Made by a program: the position numbers and the translations under genes
The notes under the pieces: generated by a model
The model's input: only the letters and a program-made list of their open reading frames with translations
What the model was told of the DNA's origin: nothing
The model's database searches: none
Source of the DNA: a virus
Lineage: Duplodnaviria; Heunggongvirae; Uroviricota; Caudoviricetes
Virus record (IMG/VR): IMGVR_UViG_2698536622_000004
Length of the DNA stretch: 23,161 nucleotides
Reading direction: 5' to 3' (one strand)
Shown here: positions 1 through 10,807 of the stretch, piece after piece
Layout: each line of letters begins with the position of its first letter
How positions within the stretch are numbered: position 1 is the first letter of the stretch

Positions 1-1053
1 TTACGGGGTAATGCCAACCGCTGCCGCCACTTTGTCGCCACTTGGCAGCGTTGCCAGAGGATTGAAACGGAGCGCCGTTTCCAGATGATCCGGTGCCAGA
101 TGTGCGTAACGCATAGTCATTTTTATATCGTGGTGTCCGAGAATTTTTTGTAAGGCCAGAATGTTTCCACCCGACATCATGAAGTGCGCCGCAAACGTAT
201 GGCGCAGAACGTGTGTGAGTTGACCGCGAGGGAGCACGATAGACGTTTTTTCCATCACGGATAAAAATTGAAAATAGCAGTCTGTGAAGAAATTGAACCC
301 ATCAAGCGCCATGATCTCTTCATAAAGCTCTTTACTGATAGGGATGCTTCTGTTTTTCTTCCCCTTCGTTCTTACAAAGGTAATTCGGTATTTGGTCACC
401 TGTGAGCGGGTAAGATTTACGGCTTCACGCCAGCGTGCGCCTGTGCTTAAGCATATCTTAACTACTAGTGCCAGAATTGGGTCCTGACGTTTGCAATCAG
501 CCAGCAATTCAACAATCTGCTCATGAGTAAGCCATGCCATCTCTTTTTCTGCGATGGTGAATTTTCGCATGTTCTCCAGTGGATTCGGATACGACCATTC
601 GCCCAGGCGGGATAGTTCGCTAAAAACACTACTTAGATAGCTTTGCTCCAGGTTAATGGTGACCGGGCTTGCTCCTTTCTTCCATTTCTCGCTGAAGTAG
701 ATCTCACCTGTCAGGCGTTTATCTCGATAGTGGGCAAACATTTTAGAGGTTAGATCAGTTGCAAGGGGATTGCCCAGAGCGTCAACCATCAGCAGCAATT
801 TGTCATAGACATGCTGCCCGGCAGTCAGAGATTTACCATGTAGTTTGAACCATAGCTCAACCACGTCTTTCAGAGTTCGACGATCCACGGATTCACCCAG
901 CCAGGGCTTTGCTTCGGTTTCTTCCATCGTGTGACGCTCAAAAGCCAGAGCTTCGCCTTTGGTGGTGAATTGTTTACGCACACGACGTCCACTACGTCCG
1001 GCAGGGTAACATTCGCAAAGCCATTTTCCTGTGGTGAGTTTTCGTACTGCCAT
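1..1053 (-). CDS. int: Tyrosine recombinase / phage integrase (P2 Int-like), 350 aa
   Basis: Translation carries the conserved C-terminal catalytic region (LRHTFAAHFMMSGGNILALQKILGHHDIKMTMRYAHL, i.e. R-H-x-x...H...Y). Start placed at ATG 1051-1053 (MAVRKL...) with GGAGGG 9 nt upstream, not at the track's upstream ATG at 1131. Stop codon is bases 1-3. Confidence 0.9.
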   Translation of the reverse strand: MAVRKLTTGKWLCECYPAGRSGRRVRKQFTTKGEALAFERHTMEETEAKPWLGESVDRRTLKDVVELWFKLHGKSLTAGQHVYDKLLLMVDALGNPLATDLTSKMFAHYRDKRLTGEIYFSEKWKKGASPVTINLEQSYLSSVFSELSRLGEWSYPNPLENMRKFTIAEKEMAWLTHEQIVELLADCKRQDPILALVVKICLSTGARWREAVNLTRSQVTKYRITFVRTKGKKNRSIPISKELYEEIMALDGFNFFTDCYFQFLSVMEKTSIVLPRGQLTHVLRHTFAAHFMMSGGNILALQKILGHHDIKMTMRYAHLAPDHLETALRFNPLATLPSGDKVAAAVGITP

Positions 1054-1239
1054 AAAAAATGCCCTCCAATAGAGAGCATTTTTACTGTATGTATAACCAG
1101 TGTCAATGTATGAAATCCTGCGACCATACATCTCACTGAAGCCATAATGAAGTTGGCTATTTTTTGCTATGTGAGTATGTGACTTTTGCGGTTAGCCTGC
1201 GGCTCATTGTTATATTAGGCGCAGATATAAAAGCAAAAT

Positions 1240-3946: not shown

Positions 3947-4800
3947 GCACCATCCTGAAATGGGCGGGAAATAAAACCGCCATAATGTCCGAACTGAAAA
4001 AGCATCTTCCTGCTGGCCCGCGACTGGTTGAACCTTTCGCGGGTTCCTGTGCTGTGATGATGGAGACGGATTACCCCAGCTATCTTGTTGCGGATATTAA
4101 TCCTGATTTAATCAACCTCTATAAAAAGGTTGCTGCTGATTGTGAGGCGTTTATATCTCGTGCCAGAGCTTTATTTGAGGAAGCAAACAGGGAGGTGGCT
4201 TATTACAACATAAGGCAGGAGTTTAATTACTCCACTGAAATTACTGATTTCATGAAAGCGGTATATTTTCTGTATCTCAATCGTCATGGTTACCGTGGGT
4301 TATGTCGCTATAACAAGAGCGGGTATTTCAACATTCCCTACGGTAATTATAAAAATCCGTATTTCCCTGAAAAAGAAATTCGCGCATTTGCAGAGAAAGC
4401 CCAGCGAGCAACGTTTATCTGCGCCAGCTTTGATGAAACGCTGGCGATGCTGCAGGTGGGGGATGTGGTGTATTGCGATCCGCCTTATGACGGTACGTTT
4501 TCCGGTTATCACACTGACGGCTTCACTGAAGATGACCAGTATCACCTGGCATCCGTTCTTGAACATCGGTCATCAGAAGGACATCCCGTCATTGTTTCTA
4601 ACAGTGACACATCCCTGATCCGTTCGCTGTATCGCAATTTTACTCACCACTACATCAAGGCAAAACGCAGCATCGGTGTGGCAGCTGGTGATAGTAAATC
4701 TGCAACAGAAATCATTGCTGTTTCCGGGGCGCGCTGCTGGGTGGGATTTGATCCATCGCGTGGCGTAGATAGTTCTGCTGTGTACGAGGTGCGTGTATGA
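3943..4800 (+). CDS. dam: DNA N6-adenine methyltransferase, Dam (GATC) family, 285 aa
   Basis: AdoMet-binding motif [11 protein letters not shown] and catalytic DPPY; alignable by eye over most of its length with E. coli Dam (KWAG..K, FLYLNR.GY.GLCRYN, VYCDPPY). ATG at 3943 with GGAGGTG upstream; track start 3883 is upstream of this. Confidence 0.85.
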
Positions 4801-7211
4801 GTCATGACGATATGAGCAACTCTAGCGGCTTTAACGAGGCCGCTGCATCATTTTCATGGAACGGCCCGAAAAAGGCCATTAACCCTTATCTGGACCCGGC
4901 GGAAGTTGCGCCGGAGTCTGCACTTTCAAACCTGATCACTCTGTATGTTGCCGATAACGAGCAGGAACAACTGCGCCGCGAGGCACTGAGTGAGCAGGTC
5001 TGGGAGCGTTATTTCTTTAATGAATCCCGTGATCCTGTCCAGCGCGAAATGGAGCAGGATAAGCTCATTAGCCGGGCAAAGCTGGCGCATGAGCAGCAGC
5101 GTTTTAATCCAGACATGGTCATTCTGGCTGACGTCAACGCCCAGCCTTCCCATATCAGCAAGCCGCTGATGCAACGTATTGAATACTTCAGCAGCTTGGG
5201 CAGGCCAAAGGCTTATTCCCGCTATTTGCGTGAGACGATTAAGCCATGTCTGGAACGACTGGAGCATGTACGCGACAGTCAGCTATCCACTTCTTTTCGC
5301 TTTATGGCAAGCCATGAAGGGCTGGACGGCCTGCTGATCCTGCCTGAAATGAGTCAGGATCAGGTAAAACGCCTGTCCACCCTGGTAGCTGCGCATATGA
5401 GCATGTGCCTTGATGCCGCTTGTGGCGATTTATATGCCACCGATGACGTTAAGCCAGAAGAAATCCGCAAGACATGGGAAAAGGTGGCAGCGGAAACCCT
5501 GCGACTGGATGTTATCCCGCCTGCGTTTGAGCAACTCCGCCGGAAAAGAAACCGCCGTAAACCAGTGCCCTATGAACTCATTCCGGGCTCGCTGGCGCGT
5601 ATGCTGTGCGCCGACTGGTGGTATCGGAAATTGTGGAAGATGCGTTGCGAATGGCGGGAAGAGCAGTTGCGTGCTGTCTGCCTGGTCAGCAAAAAAGCAT
5701 CTCCCTATGTCAGCTATGAAGCTGTGATGCATAAACGTGAGCAGCGCCGTAAGTCGCTGGAGTTTTTCCGTTCTCATGAACTGGTGAACGAAGACGGAGA
5801 CGCGCTGGATATGGAAGATGTGGTAAACGCCAGCTGCAGCAACCCGGCGCATCGCCGCAATGAGATGATGGCCTGTGTTAAAGGTCTGGAGCTTATCGCG
5901 GAAATGCGCGGTGACTGCGCCGTTTTCTACACTATTACCTGTCCGTCACGTTTCCATTCCACGCTCAATAACGGCAGACCCAACCCGACCTGGCAAAACG
6001 CGACGGTAAGACAAAGCAGCGATTATCTGGTCGGTATGTTTGCTGCATTTCGTAAGGCGATGCACAAAGCCGGGTTGCGCTGGTATGGCGTGCGGGTGGC
6101 TGAGCCGCATCACGACGGCACAGTTCACTGGCACCTGTTGTGTTTCATGCGCAAAAAAGACCGCCGCGCCATTACTGCATTGTTGCGTAAGTTTGCTATC
6201 CGTGAAGACCGCGAGGAGCTGGGCAATAACACGGGGCCGCGCTTTAAGTCTGAGCTGATTAACCCGCGCAAAGGAACGCCGACAAGCTACATAGCGAAAT
6301 ACATCAGTAAGAACATTGACGGGCGTGGTCTGGCTGGCGAGATCAGCAAGGAAACGGGTAAATCTCTTCGTGATAACGCTGAATACGTGAATGCCTGGGC
6401 GTCTTTGCATCGTGTTCAGCAATTCCGCTTCTTTGGTATTCCGGGGCGTCAGGCTTACCGTGAACTGCGATTGCTGGCTGGTCAGGCGGCAAGGCAGCAG
6501 GGTGACAAAAAAGCAGGTGTGCCGGTACTGGATAACCCGCGCCTTGATGCCATTCTGGCTGCTGCTGATGCTGGTTGTTTTGCCACCTATATCATGAAGC
6601 AGGGAGGTGTACTGGTTCCCCGTAAATATCACCTCATCAGAACCGCTTATGAAATTAACGAAGAGCCGACCGCCTATGGCGATCACGGTATTCGTATTTA
6701 TGGCATCTGGTCACCCATTGCAGAGGGCAAGATCTGCACTCATGCAGTGAAGTGGAAAATGGTTCGTAAGGCCGTTGACGTTCAGGAGGCGGCAGCCGAC
6801 CAGGGCGCTTGCGCCCCTTGGACTCGTGGCAATAACTGTCCCCTTGCTGAAAATTTGAACCAACATGAGAAAGATGAATCAGCAGATGGGGATACCAGAA
6901 CGGACATTACCTGCATGGATGACAAGGAATTGCACGATTACCTGCACAGTATGAGCAAAAAAGAGCGCCGGGAACTGGCAGCAAGATTGCGCCTGGTTAA
7001 ACCGAAACGGCGTAAAGACTACAAACAGCGAATTACAGAGTATCAGCGTCAGCAGCTCGTCTATGAACTGAAGTCCAGAGGATTTGATGGCAGCGAGAAA
7101 GAGGTCGATTTGCTCCTTTGCGGTGGCAGTATTCCGTCAGGAGCAGGCCTGCGTATCTTCTATCGGAACCAGCGTTTGCAGGAAGATGATAAGTGGCGGA
7201 ACCTGTATTAA
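4797..7211 (+). CDS. A: Rolling-circle replication initiation endonuclease (P2 gpA family), 804 aa
   Basis: HUH-type metal-binding motif ([13 protein letters not shown]) and tyrosine-containing segment ([13 protein letters not shown]) typical of gpA-like relaxases. Last gene of the early operon; ATG overlaps the dam stop (ATGA). Confidence 0.9.
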
Positions 7212-7305
7212 TCACGCGGGTTAACAATTCGTGCTCTTAATAATACCAGGCATATCAGGCTGATGAACGTAAAAAAACGTTTTACATCAGTAAGATTATT
7301 ATATA

Positions 7306-7321
7306 CTGTAAATATAAACAG
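7306..7321. promoter_or_regulatory. LexA (SOS) box: CTGT-N8-ACAG within TACTGTAAATATAAACAGTG
   Basis: Matches the enterobacterial LexA consensus TACTGTATATATATACAGTA at the CTGT/ACAG arms with an AT-only spacer. Sits ~45 nt upstream of the small ORF at 7365 and overlaps candidate -10 hexamers (TATACT at 7302-7307). Confidence 0.6.
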
Positions 7322-7364
7322 TGGTTATATGTACAGTATTGCGTATGGTGTTATAGGAGGAAAG

Positions 7365-7553
7365 ATGCAGGACTATTTTTTGGAGTCTTTGAAGCTCCAG
7401 CGCATTGATTTTTTTCTTAAGCTTGTAGCGGCTAGTGAGTGTAGTGATGAAGAGAAGGGGCTAGCTCTGCAGTGGGTTTCTGAATTGACTGATGAGTTGA
7501 TGGCGAAAATTCGAAGCCATGAATACAGTAGGTCGATGGATGTAATCAGTTGA
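7365..7553 (+). CDS. Small acidic protein, 62 aa, downstream of a LexA box; candidate SOS-inducible antirepressor (186 Tum-like position) or other SOS cargo
   Basis: ATG at 7365 with AGGAGG 4 nt upstream. The longer track ORF starting at 7263 would contain the LexA box, so the shorter start is preferred. Followed by a terminator hairpin. Confidence 0.45.
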   Translation: MQDYFLESLKLQRIDFFLKLVAASECSDEEKGLALQWVSELTDELMAKIRSHEYSRSMDVIS

Positions 7554-7585
7554 GCTTGTTTCGTTAGGACTTGATAAGGGAACCG

Positions 7586-7607
7586 AAAAGGGGCATTAAG
7601 CCCCTTT
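7586..7607. terminator. Bidirectional intrinsic terminator-like hairpin (AAAAGGGGC-ATTAA-GCCCCTTT)
   Basis: GC-rich 5-bp core stem extended by A/T pairs, flanked by A-run and T-run. Sits between the stop of the plus-strand small ORF (7553) and the stop of the minus-strand lipoprotein gene (7621). Confidence 0.5.
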
Positions 7608-7620
7608 CTCATAAGTTGAT

Positions 7621-7920
7621 TTAGTTGTTACCCAAAGAGCCGGCCATGGCTGCATATTTAATTTCTTCGCTGGGTATTTCAGGATGTAGTTGAATTTGCC
7701 TGATGATATAGCCAGGAACTTCTTCACTCCACAGTTTCGCCGCGTCCTTACAGACCTTATACGCGAAGTCTCTATTCTCAAAGGCATAGGATTTTCCGTA
7801 TGCATATTGCTGACAGGCATGAACATAAGCTCCGAAGTCGCCGTCTTTATCTGGCAAAGCACATCCAGCTAAGGCTATGATGATTGCTACTAACGTAAAG
7901 GAGAAAGTTATACGTTTCAT
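7621..7920 (-). CDS. Small lipoprotein, 99 aa (lipobox LAGC)
   Basis: N-terminus MKRITFSFTLVAIIIALAGC is a typical lipoprotein signal peptide with lipobox cysteine. AT-rich codon usage unlike the phage core. Confidence 0.6.
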   Translation of the reverse strand: MKRITFSFTLVAIIIALAGCALPDKDGDFGAYVHACQQYAYGKSYAFENRDFAYKVCKDAAKLWSEEVPGYIIRQIQLHPEIPSEEIKYAAMAGSLGNN

Positions 7921-7976
7921 GGTCTCTTTCTAAGCGTTTAGCATTATTTAACTAAGGGGTATCTGCCGTGATTTGG

Positions 7977-8005
7977 TAGTCCCTGATATATATTCTCAGG
8001 GACTA
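7977..8005. repeat. Perfect 10-bp inverted repeat TAGTCCCTGA / TCAGGGACTA with 9-nt AT loop
   Basis: Read directly at 7977-7986 and 7996-8005; lies in the 108-nt gap between the two lipoprotein genes. No clear U-tract, so it may be an operator or RNA processing/attenuator structure rather than a terminator. Confidence 0.4.
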
Positions 8006-8028
8006 TGCTGAAGTAGCTTTAATTTTGA

Positions 8029-8835
8029 TTATTTAGAAAGGTACTTATCTCTAAGTTGATTCAGTCTGTCAGCATCGCGTTCTGAAAACTCGGCGTCACC
8101 ATAGATCGATTTCCCATCTGCGTCTTCAAGGCCAATGACTGTGACGGTAAATATAGCATCAGCCGGAACTTTAAGTTTTCCCCAATCAGAGTATCTATTA
8201 GGGGCTAATTTCCAGTTGGCTTTCTCACCTGGTTCCAGACCTCCAGAAATTTTATAGTTGAAGACGTCAGAGAACCAAGGGACGCTTCTTCCTGGGCTGG
8301 CAATAACTCCTTTGAAGAATACTCTGGCAACCGCTTTGTCTGTTCCGTTTTCAACGCTAATATCCAGAATTGGCTGATCATTGCCGTAATCCTCTTTCTG
8401 GAAATAAAAACGGGAACGTTCGACCTTGAAGGCTTTCATTTTTTCCGCAGCCTGTGTTGCAGAGGTTTGTTTGGCTTCCAGTTCTTTTATTTCTTGCAGA
8501 GCCTGTTCTTTCTCTCTCTTCTCACGCTCAAGGCGAATAGTTTGTGCGTAATTTATAACCTCATCACCAGTTTTACCTTCCAGCGCTGACTTAATTTTTG
8601 TTTCGTAGACGTCCCCAGAAGACGTTCCAGCCTGCATTAGCTCTCTCATGTTGATTTGGCTAAAGGCAACGACTTTAACTGCATCATCAAACTGAGCTTT
8701 TTTATCTGCAGGTAAGGACTCTCTTACTTTTTGAATGGACTCTTTCATCGACTGATCGCTTGATGCATCGATCTTCGGTTTGTCACAAGCAGTAAGCAGC
8801 AGAGCAAAAGCAATTACGCCAGTTAATTTCTTCAT
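8029..8835 (-). CDS. Lipoprotein, 268 aa (lipobox LLTAC), with a Lys/Glu-rich coiled-coil-like segment and a C-terminal domain of unknown function
   Basis: Start placed at the internal ATG (8833-8835) giving MKKLTGVIAFALLLTAC; the track start at 8907 adds 24 residues with no SD. Periplasmic-type composition. Same strand as the 99-aa lipoprotein gene downstream. Confidence 0.6.
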   Translation of the reverse strand: MKKLTGVIAFALLLTACDKPKIDASSDQSMKESIQKVRESLPADKKAQFDDAVKVVAFSQINMRELMQAGTSSGDVYETKIKSALEGKTGDEVINYAQTIRLEREKREKEQALQEIKELEAKQTSATQAAEKMKAFKVERSRFYFQKEDYGNDQPILDISVENGTDKAVARVFFKGVIASPGRSVPWFSDVFNYKISGGLEPGEKANWKLAPNRYSDWGKLKVPADAIFTVTVIGLEDADGKSIYGDAEFSERDADRLNQLRDKYLSK

Positions 8836-9357
8836 ATCCCTATCCCAATCGTAAAAAAACAAGGCTAATCCTAACAGGATTAGCGGGCATGACAAACTCA
8901 TAGCCATATAGGTGTGCTGTATAAATTAGCGGGATGAGAAAGCCTGCACAGACCCTCATGTTGAAACTTGATTTTAGCTCAAAAGAGCTGACACTAAATA
9001 ACTGCGCGGAATAATGCTCCACTTTCGGTTAGCCCTTGGCCCTTGCTGGGTAAGGCGTGGGGCCGTTTTCTTCGCCTGATCCTGCTGTATCTGGCCTACA
9101 GTATGTTGTCCTTACGCGACATGCCACATGTCAGTAAACGGCAGGTGTAGCAGTATTAGACGCAGCTATTTAGTGTGTATTAAGCTGGCTCATATTTATG
9201 ACTGGTTTCAAGGTTTGACCGATTTTCATGTCATGCATGTCTATGCTGCATGAGTTCGCATGATCGTTTGAGGATCGGTTTGGCTAAGACATGCCAGAAC
9301 TGGCGAGCTTTTGCTCATGTCATGCAGGTGCATGAAAACTACTACATAAAGCGGGCA

Positions 9358-9376
9358 GGCGTGGCGGGGATACGAG
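9358..9376. other. Candidate cos (cohesive-end/packaging) site: GGCGTGGCGGGGATACGAG
   Basis: The first 13 nt (GGCGTGGCGGGGA) match my recollection of the 19-nt cohesive ends of 186 (GGCGTGGCGGGGAAAGCAT) and P2 (GGCGAGGCGGGGAAAGCAC). Located in a 590-bp non-coding region between the A-side cargo and the portal gene, where cos lies in P2-like genomes. Confidence 0.4.
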
Positions 9377-9436
9377 CGCGCGCTGTGCTGTGTGGTATAG
9401 GCCTTAATTTAGTATGATTCAATAGTGTCGGGAGCT

Positions 9437-9494: not shown

Positions 9495-10469
9495 ATGGGG
9501 TTAGGATTAAAAGACGCTATTGTGCATACCGCTGCGTTTCATCAAAAGGAAACTAATGAATTGCAATTGCCAAACAATCATTGGCATCCTGGTTTTATCA
9601 CTGTCTTAGCAGCTTACGTGAATCATCACAAAATTACCGAAGATAACTGTGTTTTGTCATGCCCTGGCTATATGCGAGCTATCAATTTACATGGTGCTTT
9701 ATGGGGAGAGGATCAGTATCAACAGGAACGTGTAAATGTTGGAAGAAATTACAGTTTGGTTACAGCATTAACCAATGTTGAAGCTGTTGACGTTGCCACT
9801 GGTAGTATTAACAGTTGTGTAAGGCAGTTAACATTCCCTGATCGTGATCCGAGAGATTGTCCCAAGGGACTTACAGATCTAACCCATGTTATAGGTGAGC
9901 TTCACGATAACGTTTGGTCGCATGGAAAATCAACGGGTTTTTCTTTTGCACAACGTTCGGCTGTACCCCACACTCAAAAAAAAGAGCACTATTTAGAATT
10001 TTCTTTGGCGGACTGTGGGTTAGGATTTCTCCGAGAATTGCGGCGAGCTGGTATACCCGGAATTGAGACTCACCAGGATGCGATCGCATGGTGTATTCAA
10101 GAGGGACATTCATCTAAGCATGCTGATTTGCAGGATGATTGGGCACAGCAGCTTCCCCAGGACTTTATTGGGGGTAGTGTGTTTGGCCACGGGGTTTCGG
10201 TCAAAGAAAAAGATAATAATCATCAAGGGCTTGGGTTGTATCACTTGATGAAATTGATAAAAACATATAATGGGGAATTGCAACTGGCTTCAGGAAATGT
10301 ATGCTTAGAAGCAATAGGTGATGAAGTGAGCTATACTGAATTACGTACTGAATGGCCGGGTGTAGCAATTTCTTGCCGTTTTAAGATTCATGAACTGGCA
10401 GTCGATAAAGATAGCGAAGAAAATGACCCTCAGCTTATGGAAATAATGCGGGCGTTAGGAGGAGAGTAA
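9495..10469 (+). CDS. Histidine-kinase-like (GHKL/Bergerat-fold) ATPase, 324 aa, with a ~130-aa N-terminal region of unknown function and no DHp/phospho-acceptor domain
   Basis: N-box-like ELHDNVWSH, D/G1-box-like DCGLGF and G2-box-like QGLGLYHL in the expected order. AT-rich. Stop TAA overlaps the next gene's ATG by 1 nt. Confidence 0.7.
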   Translation: MGLGLKDAIVHTAAFHQKETNELQLPNNHWHPGFITVLAAYVNHHKITEDNCVLSCPGYMRAINLHGALWGEDQYQQERVNVGRNYSLVTALTNVEAVDVATGSINSCVRQLTFPDRDPRDCPKGLTDLTHVIGELHDNVWSHGKSTGFSFAQRSAVPHTQKKEHYLEFSLADCGLGFLRELRRAGIPGIETHQDAIAWCIQEGHSSKHADLQDDWAQQLPQDFIGGSVFGHGVSVKEKDNNHQGLGLYHLMKLIKTYNGELQLASGNVCLEAIGDEVSYTELRTEWPGVAISCRFKIHELAVDKDSEENDPQLMEIMRALGGE

Positions 10470-10807
10470 TGAACAAAATCGCATACAAGTTACCCGAGGG
10501 TGACCTGGCTTCGCGCAATCAGGCTATCCCCCAACGACACAAGATTGAAGGGTTCATTAAAGAAGGGTATACCGTAGATTTAGATCTGAGCGGTGTTTAT
10601 TCAATTTCAGAATCATACTCTGATGAAATCTTTGGTGTTTTGGTAGTGAAATTCGGTGTAACCAAAGTTTTGAGTCAAGTTAAGGTTCGCAATGCACCCC
10701 CTTCAATTTTAAAAAGTATTGCAAAAGTGATCCAACGCCGTAGTAATGAAGTAGCATCAAAAAAGGTTCATTCCGTTGGATTTGATGGTTTATACGCCGT
10801 TTGTTAA
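10469..10807 (+). CDS. Small STAS-like protein, 112 aa (DUF4325-like; anti-sigma-factor-antagonist-like fold predicted)
   Basis: Core segment YTVDLDLSGVYSISESYSDEIFGVLVVKFG resembles the DUF4325/STAS-like pattern (hydrophobic-LDF-x-GV...S-x-DE-x-FG). AGGAGGAG SD lies inside the end of the upstream gene, indicating translational coupling. Confidence 0.55.
   Translation: MNKIAYKLPEGDLASRNQAIPQRHKIEGFIKEGYTVDLDLSGVYSISESYSDEIFGVLVVKFGVTKVLSQVKVRNAPPSILKSIAKVIQRRSNEVASKKVHSVGFDGLYAVC

Follow-up and report, generated by a model that had tools for sequence, protein, structure and literature searches.

A putative SOS-induction module with a tumA-type gene behind replication gene A of a Fels-2/186-type Escherichia coli prophage

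Within a stretch of 23,161 nucleotides of viral DNA, the whole of which we refer to as the window, we observed a gene of 62 codons lying directly behind replication gene A and downstream of a predicted LexA operator. This arrangement is very probably the SOS-induction module of a Fels-2/186-type (P2-family) E. coli prophage, in which a LexA-repressed promoter drives production of TumA, an antirepressor of the immunity repressor CI. In an undamaged lysogen, LexA bound at 7304-7323 would cover the -10 hexamer and the likely transcription start and thereby keep the promoter shut; upon DNA damage, RecA-stimulated self-cleavage of LexA would allow the promoter to fire, and a one-gene transcript would give rise to a TumA protein of 62 residues folded as a helical hairpin. 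TumA would then bind the 186-type CI and stop it from binding its operators, the loss of CI from the operators would release the early lytic promoter and induce the prophage, and resynthesis of LexA would bring TumA production to an end. For this copy of the module we infer transcription and binding to CI and, from the literature on 186, PsP3 and Fels-2, LexA binding to the operator, SOS induction and antirepressor activity. The module has already been described for Fels-2 and PsP3, and the gene itself is not novel.

Operator, promoter and limits of the transcription unit

Replication gene A (4797-7211, plus strand) encodes 804 residues (Pfam Phage_GPA, 2.8e-127), and its product is 88-97% identical to the gpA proteins of Fels-2, Kp4860-7 and the MS 115-1 prophage. 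The small open reading frame begins at 7365 on the same strand. A small gene or tum likewise lies directly 3' of gene A in 186, PsP3 and Fels-2, which bears out the Tum-like position that a first-pass annotation of this DNA had assigned to it.

The predicted LexA operator, TACTGTAAATATAAACAGTG (7304-7323, plus strand), matches the consensus at 17 of 20 positions, and its left half (TACTGT, 7304-7309) doubles as the -10 hexamer. Together with a -35 hexamer read from the sequence (TTTACA, 7281-7286, plus strand) and a spacer of 17 nt, it forms a predicted sigma-70 promoter of the p95 type with the LexA box placed over the -10. An operator close to consensus and overlapping promoter hexamers had been proposed before, and our coordinates agree with that proposal to the base. 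The layout is that of phage 186 p95, which reads TTCACA-18-TACTGT in record NC_001317 and is annotated there as SOS-dependent, with a putative LexA binding site over the -10 as the counterpart of the box described here. Hexamers resembling the -35 of the window are found at equal distance in ESSI-2, ESSI2_ev015 and 186. A generic promoter scan of positions 7000-8200 called no promoter, because TACTGT agrees with TATAAT in only 3 of the 6 positions; neither this miss nor that of the terminator scanner described below was counted as evidence against the element concerned.

The core motif CTGT-N8-ACAG occurs at 7306-7321 and nowhere else in the window. The bare core is weak evidence for a LexA site, with 0.31 copies expected per window by chance and at least one copy present in 25 of 100 shuffles. 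When the whole operator is considered, one 20-mer with at most three mismatches from TACTGTATATATATACAGTA is found in the window and none in any of 100 shuffles of it. We also observed a perfect CTGT-N8-ACAG just 5' of the small gene that follows gene A in all 11 P2-family loci examined. An alignment of ten diverged loci of this family contains 12 invariant columns, 11 of which are those of TACTGT and ACAGT, while the flanks of the box are otherwise unalignable. The operator sequence is identical in Fels-2, 813R9, Kp4860-7, 500465-1 and the MS 115-1 prophage. In one relative, ST13-OXA48phi12.1, CCAG stands where ACAG is expected. A second LexA box downstream of the first was considered and rejected, the only candidate being a lone ACAGTA half-site (7333-7338) that has no CTGT partner.

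At the other end of the gene, RNA folding gives a G+C-rich hairpin, AAAGGGGC-AUUAA-GCCCCUUU followed by CUCAU (7587-7607), so that the terminator which the first-pass annotation had placed after the reading frame is indeed present as a structure; the whole 72-nt stretch folds modestly better than its shuffles (z = -1.86). A terminator scanner run over 7000-8200 did not call the hairpin, because the U-run lies partly inside the stem. Since both an A-run and a T-run flank it, the hairpin is probably a two-way terminator, which would be shared with the convergent gene at 7621-7920 and would end a one-gene SOS operon. An Rfam scan of 7150-8000 found no RNA family.

The 62-residue product and its relationship to Tum

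The small gene (7365-7553, plus strand) starts with the ATG at 7365, ends with a stop codon at 7551-7553 and is preceded, 4 nt 5' of the ATG, by the Shine-Dalgarno sequence AGGAGG (7355-7360), which was read from the sequence and is conserved in Fels-2-type relatives. A manual count gives 12 acidic and 7 basic residues in the product, and the earlier description of a strong Shine-Dalgarno sequence followed by an acidic 62-codon frame thus stands. Two longer readings are not supported: for the one of 96 residues, the start codon (ATG 7263) lies 5' of the -35 hexamer, and for the one of 74 residues, the codon at 7329 is GCG in phage 813R9. Compared with its relatives, the 62-codon frame has a dN/dS of 0.04-0.06, and the differences fall mostly at third codon positions of the plus-strand frame. 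Such strong purifying selection (dN/dS about 0.05) marks it as a real gene. Nothing supports an antisense reading frame of 79 residues at 7373-7612, the purifying selection falling on the plus-strand frame.

The protein belongs to phrog_698 (1.2e-37), and its family comprises 89 clusters at 50% identity among 1.84 billion proteins, nearly all of them 50-100 residues long. Searches of Pfam, NCBIfam and PADLOC returned no family for it; no NCBIfam (NF007893) or Pfam match places it in the DinI family, and a profile search of PDB sequences returned no relative of solved structure. The AlphaFold2 model is a hairpin of two helices (residues 2-23 and 28-61, pLDDT 90), for which Foldseek found only generic helical hairpins in the PDB (best E 0.6). 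Covered by no Pfam or NCBIfam model, the gene is labelled 'hypothetical protein' almost everywhere; the label 'levan regulatory protein', attached to it in a few records, is backed by no family match from any scan we ran.

Profile comparison links the protein to that part of 186 Tum which lies N-terminal of the DinI-like half, and the relationship is remote. In hhalign, the 186-type Tum N-terminus is matched at 96.5% (E 7e-10) when the profile is narrow and at 98.3% (E 2.5e-14) when it is broad; the match to PsP3 TumA is weaker (73.6%, E 2.9e-5). The PHROG matches are reciprocal, 186 Tum finding phrog_698, the family of the window protein, at 2.4e-5 and the window protein finding phrog_1993, the family of PsP3 TumA and the 186 Tum N-terminus, at 2e-3. 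Pairwise BLASTP of the 62-residue protein against 186 Tum and PsP3 TumA gave no alignment, so the homology rests on profiles and intermediates. One such intermediate is the 60-residue 'Tum' of Yersinia phage vB_YenM_06.16-2, which connects the two groups, its tblastn matches being at E 7e-3 with 186 Tum and at E 4 with the window protein. Over its residues 1-45, the window protein can be aligned with residues 1-42 of 186 Tum, and the two share the pattern (Q/E)R(I/V)..........C...(D/E)(K/R)..AL....(S/A)E. These comparisons make the protein a homologue of the antirepressor part at the N-terminus of 186 Tum; its gene is the tumA half of a split tum.

186 Tum, which is made from the LexA-repressed promoter p95, binds CI and blocks its binding to operators (PMC3121763; PMC7708051). 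It is a single polypeptide of 146 residues with a DinI-like C-terminal half (residues 72-142 match DinI), whereas the window protein has 62 residues and no DinI part; the two are only about 23% identical over the core. The 186 operon runs on past a partial terminator into orf97, whereas the operon described here would consist of one gene. The presumed target is of the same family in both phages, a 186-type CI. The tum frame of Fels-2 and PsP3 is split, with one gene upstream and a DinI homologue behind it (Lemire et al. 2011, PMC3121763), and the upstream gene of PsP3 has been reported to encode antirepressor activity (PMC3121763, where Bunny et al. 2002 and a personal communication of G. E. 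Christie are given as sources). The PsP3 record annotates both tumA and tumB and labels tumA 'UV induction of prophage'; its tumA, of 60 residues, stands behind a perfect LexA box, as does the small gene of the window, but it belongs to the other subfamily (phrog_1993 rather than phrog_698) and PsP3 retains tumB.

Fels-2 is far closer. Between the end of gene A and the small gene's stop codon, its DNA is 93% identical to that of the window; the -35 hexamer, the LexA box and the Shine-Dalgarno sequence are identical, and STM2728 matches the window protein at 59 of 62 residues (95%). The small gene follows dam and gene A in each genome, and each encodes a 186-type CI, although identity between the two CI proteins is only about 37-42% over the full length, with 69% for the N-terminal domain and 24% for the C-terminal one. 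STM2726-STM2727-STM2728, a predicted operon of Fels-2, is among those singled out in a study of cells exposed to the mutagen MX (PMC2225428), and Bunny et al. 2002 ascribe, in their title, the lethal effect of lexA-null mutations in Salmonella to the Fels-2 prophage.

These comparisons bear on how the first-pass annotation had read the gene. Its central proposal, a LexA-controlled Tum-like switch gene, gains support from the profile homology to the 186 Tum N-terminus. The product is, as had been remarked, much shorter than 186 Tum, and this shortness is that of the known split form of tum. The suggestion of a truncated or novel antirepressor falls away, since a protein 95% identical to STM2728 is neither a truncation accident nor new, and the further alternative of an unrelated SOS-induced cargo gene finds no support.

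What sets the window apart from Fels-2 is the absence of the second gene. A DinI-family gene of tumB type (STM2726.1) begins 10 nt past the stop codon in Fels-2, its normal distance, whereas in the window the stop codon is followed by the terminator and convergent cargo. We found a DinI-like domain neither fused to the small gene, as in 186, nor encoded by the next gene, as in PsP3 and Fels-2, and tblastn of tumB and of the 186 Tum C-terminus against the window gave nothing below E 0.2. Similarity to the Fels-2-type phages stops at 7554, directly after the stop codon, and hotspot cargo stands in for tumB from that point on. The interval between gpA and gpQ is an accessory-gene and defence hotspot with the tumA-type gene at its edge (PMC9122126).

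The LexA-box-tumA module is present in 1125 of 5426 complete E. coli genomes (about one in five), as well as in many Klebsiella and Salmonella prophages. The DinI-like partner is present in about 96% of the E. coli carriers, so that at most 42 of the 1125 are in the tumB-less state; 20 E. coli genomes share the tumB-less arrangement with the window at 99.3-99.9% identity, and E. coli MS 115-1 carries an identical module. Five phages whose hosts belong to different genera (ENT90, ESSI-2, ESSI2_ev015, vB_YenM_324 and vB_YenM_06.16-2) resemble the window in having a LexA box and a solo gene of the Tum N-terminal type behind gene A, and the interval from gene A to their portal gene contains no annotated DinI gene; their products are 19-51% identical to the window protein over the core, and the literature searched gives no characterization of these solo genes. 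The report on PsP3 suggests that the DinI-like feature is unnecessary for antirepressor activity (PMC3121763). Induction behaviour may nevertheless differ without the partner.

The logic of the proposed module is also that of Gifsy GfoA and GftA, Fels-1 FsoA and N15 AntC, in which a small LexA-repressed antirepressor binds a non-cleavable repressor (PMC3121763). We found no sequence relationship between these proteins and the window protein, and they belong to other genome contexts and act on repressors of other families. The antirepressor gene of the Gifsy phages is preceded by a dinI homologue (PMC3121763).

The CI repressor and its covariation with TumA

The presumed target of the antirepressor is encoded on the minus strand at 1447-2022, where a gene for a 186-type CI immunity repressor of 191 residues combines a helix-turn-helix domain (PF07022, 2.8e-33) with a C-terminal domain (PF16452, 2.9e-28). 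The N-terminal domain spans roughly residues 1-75 and the C-terminal one roughly 85-191. The protein is 32% identical to 186 CI (E 2e-37). A domain scan gave no match to Peptidase_S24, the self-cleavage domain, and SOS induction would therefore require some antirepressor. A 186-type CI is also present in all 15 phages that we examined. P2 itself has a short C repressor and is not known to be inducible.

If TumA and CI formed cognate pairs, their identities might be expected to rise and fall together. For CI as a whole this is ruled out in the Fels-2-type clade, where TumA proteins are 86-100% identical and whole CI proteins only 37-48%. The N-terminal domains of these CI proteins are 58-87% identical, which resolves the mismatch only partly. 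Across the 15 phages, a small and phylogenetically non-independent sample, TumA identity rises and falls with that of the CI N-terminal domain (Mantel rho 0.67, p 0.0005; partial Mantel given gpA 0.50, p 0.0015) and not that of the C-terminal domain (rho 0.10, p 0.19), and the covariation with the N-terminal domain persists after near-duplicates are removed. In two discordant pairs, Yen_06.16-2 with Yen_31.17 (gpA 96%, Tum 35%, CI N-terminal domain 36%) and PsP3 with 186 (gpA 90%, Tum 38%, CI N-terminal domain 36%), the linkage with gpA is broken.

On the basis of this covariation, we infer that TumA contacts the N-terminal DNA-binding domain of CI. The literature searched contained nothing on the site at which Tum binds CI, and we regard the covariation of TumA type with the N-terminal rather than the C-terminal domain as a new lead. 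A bolder and more doubtful suggestion, which we offer tentatively, is that the Fels-2-type TumA is a broad-range antirepressor, which would recognize a conserved surface of the CI N-terminal domain, proposed to be the segment around RD.FPA(E/D)W(V/I)I.C after the helix-turn-helix, and could thereby inactivate CI proteins of about 40% identity and cross-induce co-resident P2-family prophages with differing CI repressors, all without the DinI-like partner.

Alternative explanations and significance

It is unlikely that the gene, although SOS-induced, encodes something other than an antirepressor, with another role in the damage response (modulation of RecA or LexA, cell division, replication or phage exclusion) and with prophage induction independent of it. 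Such a role would accord with the failure of Pfam, NCBIfam and PADLOC to match the protein and of sequence and fold searches to find a relative of solved structure, with the location of the gene on the margin of the accessory-gene hotspot between gpA and gpQ (PMC9122126) and with the near-invariance of TumA across CI proteins only 37-48% identical, which is odd for a specific binder. It sits poorly, however, with the profile homology to the 186 Tum N-terminus, with a PsP3 counterpart annotated for UV induction and reported to be an antirepressor (PMC3121763), with the presence of a 186-type CI in 15 of 15 phages, with the covariation of TumA type and the CI N-terminal domain even at constant gpA, and with a window CI that has no matched self-cleavage domain and would need an antirepressor. 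We give still less credence to a decaying remnant, in which loss of tumB and insertion of cargo have left tumA insufficient or the prophage non-inducible, the gene being kept without consequence. The two halves form one polypeptide in 186, tumB is absent from the whole window and lacking in at most 42 of 1125 E. coli carriers, and the Salmonella prophage BTP5 expresses a tum homologue with no detectable infectious phage (PMC7067206). Yet the promoter, operator, Shine-Dalgarno sequence and reading frame are intact and identical to those of other genomes, the tumB-less arrangement is nearly unchanged in the 20 E. coli genomes, solo tumA-type genes behind a LexA box recur in the five phages named above, the upstream gene of PsP3 alone is reported as an antirepressor (PMC3121763), and the window also contains integrase, CI, CII, gpA, portal and terminase reading frames.

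Least probable of all, and very improbable in our estimation, is that the LexA-like sequence is a mere A+T-rich promoter palindrome to which LexA does not bind, the gene being constitutive or otherwise regulated. The chance frequency of the bare core, the three positions at which the box departs from consensus and the CCAG of ST13-OXA48phi12.1 are what such a palindrome would lead one to expect; the lack of any 20-mer so near consensus in the 100 shuffles and the half-sites as the only invariant blocks in ten diverged phages are not. Moreover, the 186 counterpart p95 is described as LexA-regulated and derepressed in the SOS response (PMC7708051), the title of Bunny et al. 2002 implies LexA control of Fels-2, and a constitutive antirepressor would be incompatible with stable lysogeny.

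If the main reading holds, the module would determine whether prophages of a very common class are roused by DNA damage, that caused by quinolones and other SOS-inducing drugs included, and correct naming of tumA would improve the prediction of which P2-family prophages are SOS-inducible. On the side of gene A, the gpA-gpQ defence hotspot is bounded by the tumA-type gene, and surveys of the genes between gpA and gpQ would include both tumA and tumB in their counts. The covariation leads to a concrete and cheap experiment on how antirepressors of the Tum type recognize CI. Should the broad-range suggestion prove true, it would identify the CI domain contacted by Tum and carry the antirepressor 'crosstalk' known from the Gifsy and Fels-1 phages over to P2-family prophages, which are very common in E. 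coli, Klebsiella and Salmonella.

The LexA box and promoter downstream of gene A

The window, a P2-family E. coli prophage, opens with an integrase-sized ORF (1-1131, minus strand) and a 186-type CI repressor (1447-2022, minus), in which we detected PF07022 (the 186 CI helix-turn-helix) and PF16452 (the 186 CI C-terminal domain). CII (2390-2905), a Dam methylase and replication gene A (4797-7211, plus) follow in that order; the portal and terminase genes lie further along, to the right of gene A, on the minus strand. Twenty complete E. coli chromosomes, that of MS 115-1 among them, match the window over 6800-9383 at 99.3-99.9% identity.

Directly after gene A, the plus strand reads as a -35 hexamer TTTACA (7281-7286), a 17-nt spacer, the LexA box TACTGTAAATATAAACAGTG (7304-7323), a Shine-Dalgarno sequence AGGAGG (7355-7360) and a frame of 62 codons from ATG 7365 to 7553, here called tumA; a hairpin, AAAGGGGC-AUUAA-GCCCCUUU, is predicted by folding at 7587-7607. 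The first-pass annotation had proposed a LexA box over a promoter, a ribosome-binding site, a 62-codon frame and a terminator, and the sequence reads exactly so, with every element in its place. The geometry is that of p95, the LexA-controlled tum promoter of phage 186, where the TACTGT of the box is the -10 element and TTCACA, 18 nt upstream, the -35; the 186 genome annotation marks the equivalent position as a putative LexA site. A generic promoter scanner did not call the TTTACA-17-TACTGT promoter of the window, because TACTGT agrees with TATAAT at only three positions.

By itself the CTGT-N8-ACAG core counts for little, with 0.31 occurrences expected per window and a match in 25 of 100 shuffles. 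At up to three mismatches from the LexA consensus, one 20-mer was found in the window and none in 100 shuffles. We gathered the sequences that follow gene A at ten further P2-family loci, namely nine phage records (Fels-2, vB_EcoM-813R9, 186, PsP3, ESSI2_ev015, ESSI-2, ENT90, Yersinia 06.16-2 and Yersinia 324) and a third Yersinia phage, 31.17. All ten carry a perfect CTGT-N8-ACAG closely 5' of the small gene, and in an alignment of ten upstream regions from the loci compared TACTGT and ACAGT supply 11 of the 12 invariant columns, at a mean column identity of 47%. We regard this conservation as stronger support for the putative operator than the shuffle counts.

Of the relatives examined, Klebsiella phage ST13-OXA48phi12.1 alone has an imperfect core; upstream of its position 7129 the box reads TACTGTATGGATATCCAGTG, with a right half-site of CCAG for ACAG. 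The 5' UTR of the window also holds a lone ACAGTA half-site (7333-7338), 15 bp beyond the right half-site of the box and with no CTGT partner; Fels-2, 813R9, Kp4860-7, 500465-1 and ST13-OXA48phi12.1 all retain its ACAG core, while the adjoining bases vary.

The tumA frame and its kinship with Tum

Comparative evidence indicates that tumA is a real gene and that it starts at 7365. In comparisons with six relatives, the nucleotide sequences differ chiefly at third codon positions (dN/dS 0.04-0.06). A HMMER scan of 1.84 billion representative proteins returned 89 clusters with E no higher than 1e-3, almost all of 50-100 residues, and most alignments begin at an M-Q/R-D start. AlphaFold2 models the product as a two-helix hairpin (helices 2-23 and 28-61, mean pLDDT 90). 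Many database entries are instead called at 96, 92 or 87 aa, from start codons that precede the promoter and LexA box or fall within them. The position of the promoter speaks against all these extended starts, the 96-aa reading, from ATG 7263, beginning upstream of the -35 hexamer. A further in-frame ATG, at 7329, is replaced by GCG in phage 813R9. The name 'levan regulatory protein', which a few records give to 7263-7553, found no support in any scan made. In Escherichia phage 500465-1, tumA (4483-4668) carries an apparent compensated double frameshift that replaces KGLALQW with RGWLCSG at residues 31-37 and so breaks up the most conserved segment, AL..W; dN/dS rises to 0.16.

No Pfam or NCBIfam model matches the tumA product, and PGAP annotates it as 'hypothetical protein' throughout the E. 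coli genome collection. Its closest relatives are plain at the nucleotide level: over 7200-7554 the window shares 92-94% identity with Fels-2, 813R9 and dozens of Klebsiella prophages, and 59 of the 62 residues of the product are the same in Fels-2 STM2728. Although pairwise BLASTP gave no alignment with 186 Tum or PsP3 TumA, kinship with Tum emerges from profiles, reciprocal PHROG matches, intermediates and tblastn. Compared with a profile built from the N-termini of 186-type Tum proteins (those of 186, ENT90 and two Yersinia phages), the window family scored 96.5% probability (E 7e-10), and a more diverse query profile 98.3% (E 2.5e-14), aligning window residues 1-45 with Tum 1-42; the PsP3 subfamily is more loosely connected (73.6%, E 2.9e-5). 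The window protein matches phrog_698 (1e-37), phrog_8554 (1.6e-8) and phrog_1993 (2e-3), and 186 Tum matches the same three, as phrog_1993 (1e-22), phrog_8554 (1.4e-11) and phrog_698 (2.4e-5, residues 7-44); PsP3 TumA is itself phrog_1993. A chain of intermediates leads from the window through ESSI-2 and Yen_324 / Yen_06.16-2 to ENT90 and 186, its members sharing the pattern (Q/E)R(I/V)..........C...(D/E)(K/R)..AL....(S/A)E, and by tblastn a 60-aa Yersinia protein annotated 'tum protein' links the two sides. On these comparisons the window protein clearly groups with the Tum N-terminal family. The proposal of a Tum-like gene after gene A is upheld by profile and PHROG homology to the N-terminal part of 186 Tum, together with the 186-type CI of the same phage.

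A split tum lacking tumB

186 Tum has 146 aa, its N-terminal part being fused to a DinI-like half (residues 72-142 match the DinI model), whereas the window has the N-terminal type only. The PsP3 record describes tumA as 'similar to 5' end 186 tum; UV induction of prophage' and tumB as 'similar to dinI and 3' end of 186 tum'. A passage in Lemire et al. 2011 (PMC3121763), citing Bunny et al. 2002 and a personal communication from G. E. Christie, states that tum is split in Fels-2 and PsP3 and attributes antirepressor activity to the upstream gene of PsP3, which suggests that the DinI-like part is dispensable for antirepression. By homology we identify the window gene as the tumA half of this known split. 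Its shortness (62 against 146 aa), noted in the first-pass annotation, is explained by the split; the novel antirepressor considered there is the known tumA half.

Fels-2 and 813R9 each have a DinI-family gene whose start lies 10 nt past the tumA stop codon. The window lacks such a gene: similarity to Fels-2-type phages stops at 7554, directly past the stop codon, and we found no DinI-like frame anywhere in the 23-kb window. The module of LexA box, tumA and, where present, tumB occurs in 1125 of 5426 complete E. coli genomes (about 20%), among them C2566 and ATCC 11303 (E. coli B derivatives), a laboratory stock designated LAM_HS, and CFT073. Both genes are present in 1083 of the 1125 carriers, at most 42 have only part of the module, and the exact tumB-less arrangement of the window is found in 20. 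A solo tumA-type gene with a LexA box, as in the window, also occurs in ENT90, ESSI-2, ESSI2_ev015 and two Yersinia phages. Given these solo genes and the low E. coli counts, the tumB-less state is a minority variant, not a new design.

The hairpin is followed by two lipoprotein-like genes convergent with tumA, which occupy the place of tumB, then by a two-gene cassette and the portal gene. The first lipoprotein-like gene (7621-7920, minus) encodes 99 aa (phrog_7666, lipobox LAGC). The second, a DUF6694 lipoprotein (8029-8907, minus), probably starts at the internal Met 25, since its PHROG alignment begins at residue 25 and given its lipobox, LTAC. Twenty E. coli genomes have the same pair after tumA; the cargo beyond it differs in MS 115-1. 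The cassette (9495-10807, plus), directly before the portal gene, encodes a 324-aa protein (phrog_3364, no Pfam match, a GHKL-ATPase-like GLGL motif by eye) and, with a one-base overlap, a 112-aa STAS-like DUF4325 protein (Pfam 3e-9) with a weak PADLOC match to the C-terminal part of DrmA (5e-6). The gpA-gpQ interval in which it lies is a known variable hotspot in P2-like phages (Rousset et al. 2022, PMC9122126), and because of this location we consider the cassette a candidate anti-phage pair.

The CI repressor and the proposed SOS switch

The window CI is 32% identical to 186 CI, and a scan for Peptidase_S24 gave no match; without a matched self-cleavage domain for RecA, SOS induction would need an antirepressor. 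In 186, LexA cleavage derepresses p95 and the resulting Tum inhibits or sequesters CI reversibly (PMC7708051; PMC3121763). Fels-2, whose promoter, operator and Shine-Dalgarno sequence are identical to those of the window, provides indirect pointers to SOS control: its prophage is blamed for lexA-null lethality by the title of Bunny et al. 2002 (via PMC3121763), and the predicted operon STM2726-STM2727-STM2728 is listed among operons picked out in MX mutagen-treated cells (PMC2225428). From the CI type, the 186 Tum literature and these pointers, we propose, with high confidence, that LexA bound at 7304-7323 would shut the promoter, that DNA damage would clear it and allow a one-gene transcript, and that TumA would then bind CI and stop its operator binding, setting the early lytic promoter free.

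From each of 15 phages we took a 50-residue TumA core together with CI and gpA, the gene A product, and computed pairwise identities. In the Fels-2-type clade, TumA identity runs at 86-100%, in step with gpA (84-97%). Identity over whole CI is mostly no more than 37-48%, at first sight hard to square with a specific antirepressor. Most of this discrepancy goes away once the CI domains are taken separately: identity in the clade is 58-87% for the N-terminal DNA-binding domain (CI-NTD) and mostly 22-38% for the C-terminal domain (CI-CTD). Over all 15 phages, TumA correlates with CI-NTD (Mantel rho 0.67, p 0.0005), also given gpA (rho 0.50, p 0.0015), but not with CI-CTD (rho 0.10, p 0.19); with near-duplicates removed the values are rho 0.56 (p 0.0008), 0.44 (p 0.004) and 0.05 (p 0.33), respectively. 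The linkage to gpA is broken between Yen_06.16-2 and Yen_31.17 (gpA 96%, Tum 35%, CI-NTD 36%) and between PsP3 and 186 (gpA 90%, Tum 38%, CI-NTD 36%); conversely, PsP3 and Yen_31.17 are alike in Tum (50%) and CI-NTD (52%) but not in gpA (40%) or CI-CTD (23%). These patterns support a functional coupling of TumA to the CI DNA-binding domain, as a lead rather than proof given the small, phylogenetically non-independent sample, and such a coupling fits an antirepressor that blocks operator binding. We found no statement of the Tum contact site on CI in the literature searched. Between the window and four relatives (L012, L018, L023 and ST13-OXA48phi12.1), prophages nearly identical in gpA and TumA have CI-CTDs that look unrelated and CI-NTDs that are moderately conserved; this indicates that the immunity repressor is mosaic at the domain level in this phage group.

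The window thus combines a putative LexA operator over a promoter, a position directly after gene A, homology to the Tum N-terminus and a 186-type CI in the same phage, and lacks the DinI-like part; it is a tumB-less case of the known Tum-type module, not a new antirepressor. Its practical value lies in annotation, since over a thousand E. coli genomes list tumA as 'hypothetical', and it yields a prediction for test, that Tum-type proteins would recognise CI-NTD, possibly across different CI types.
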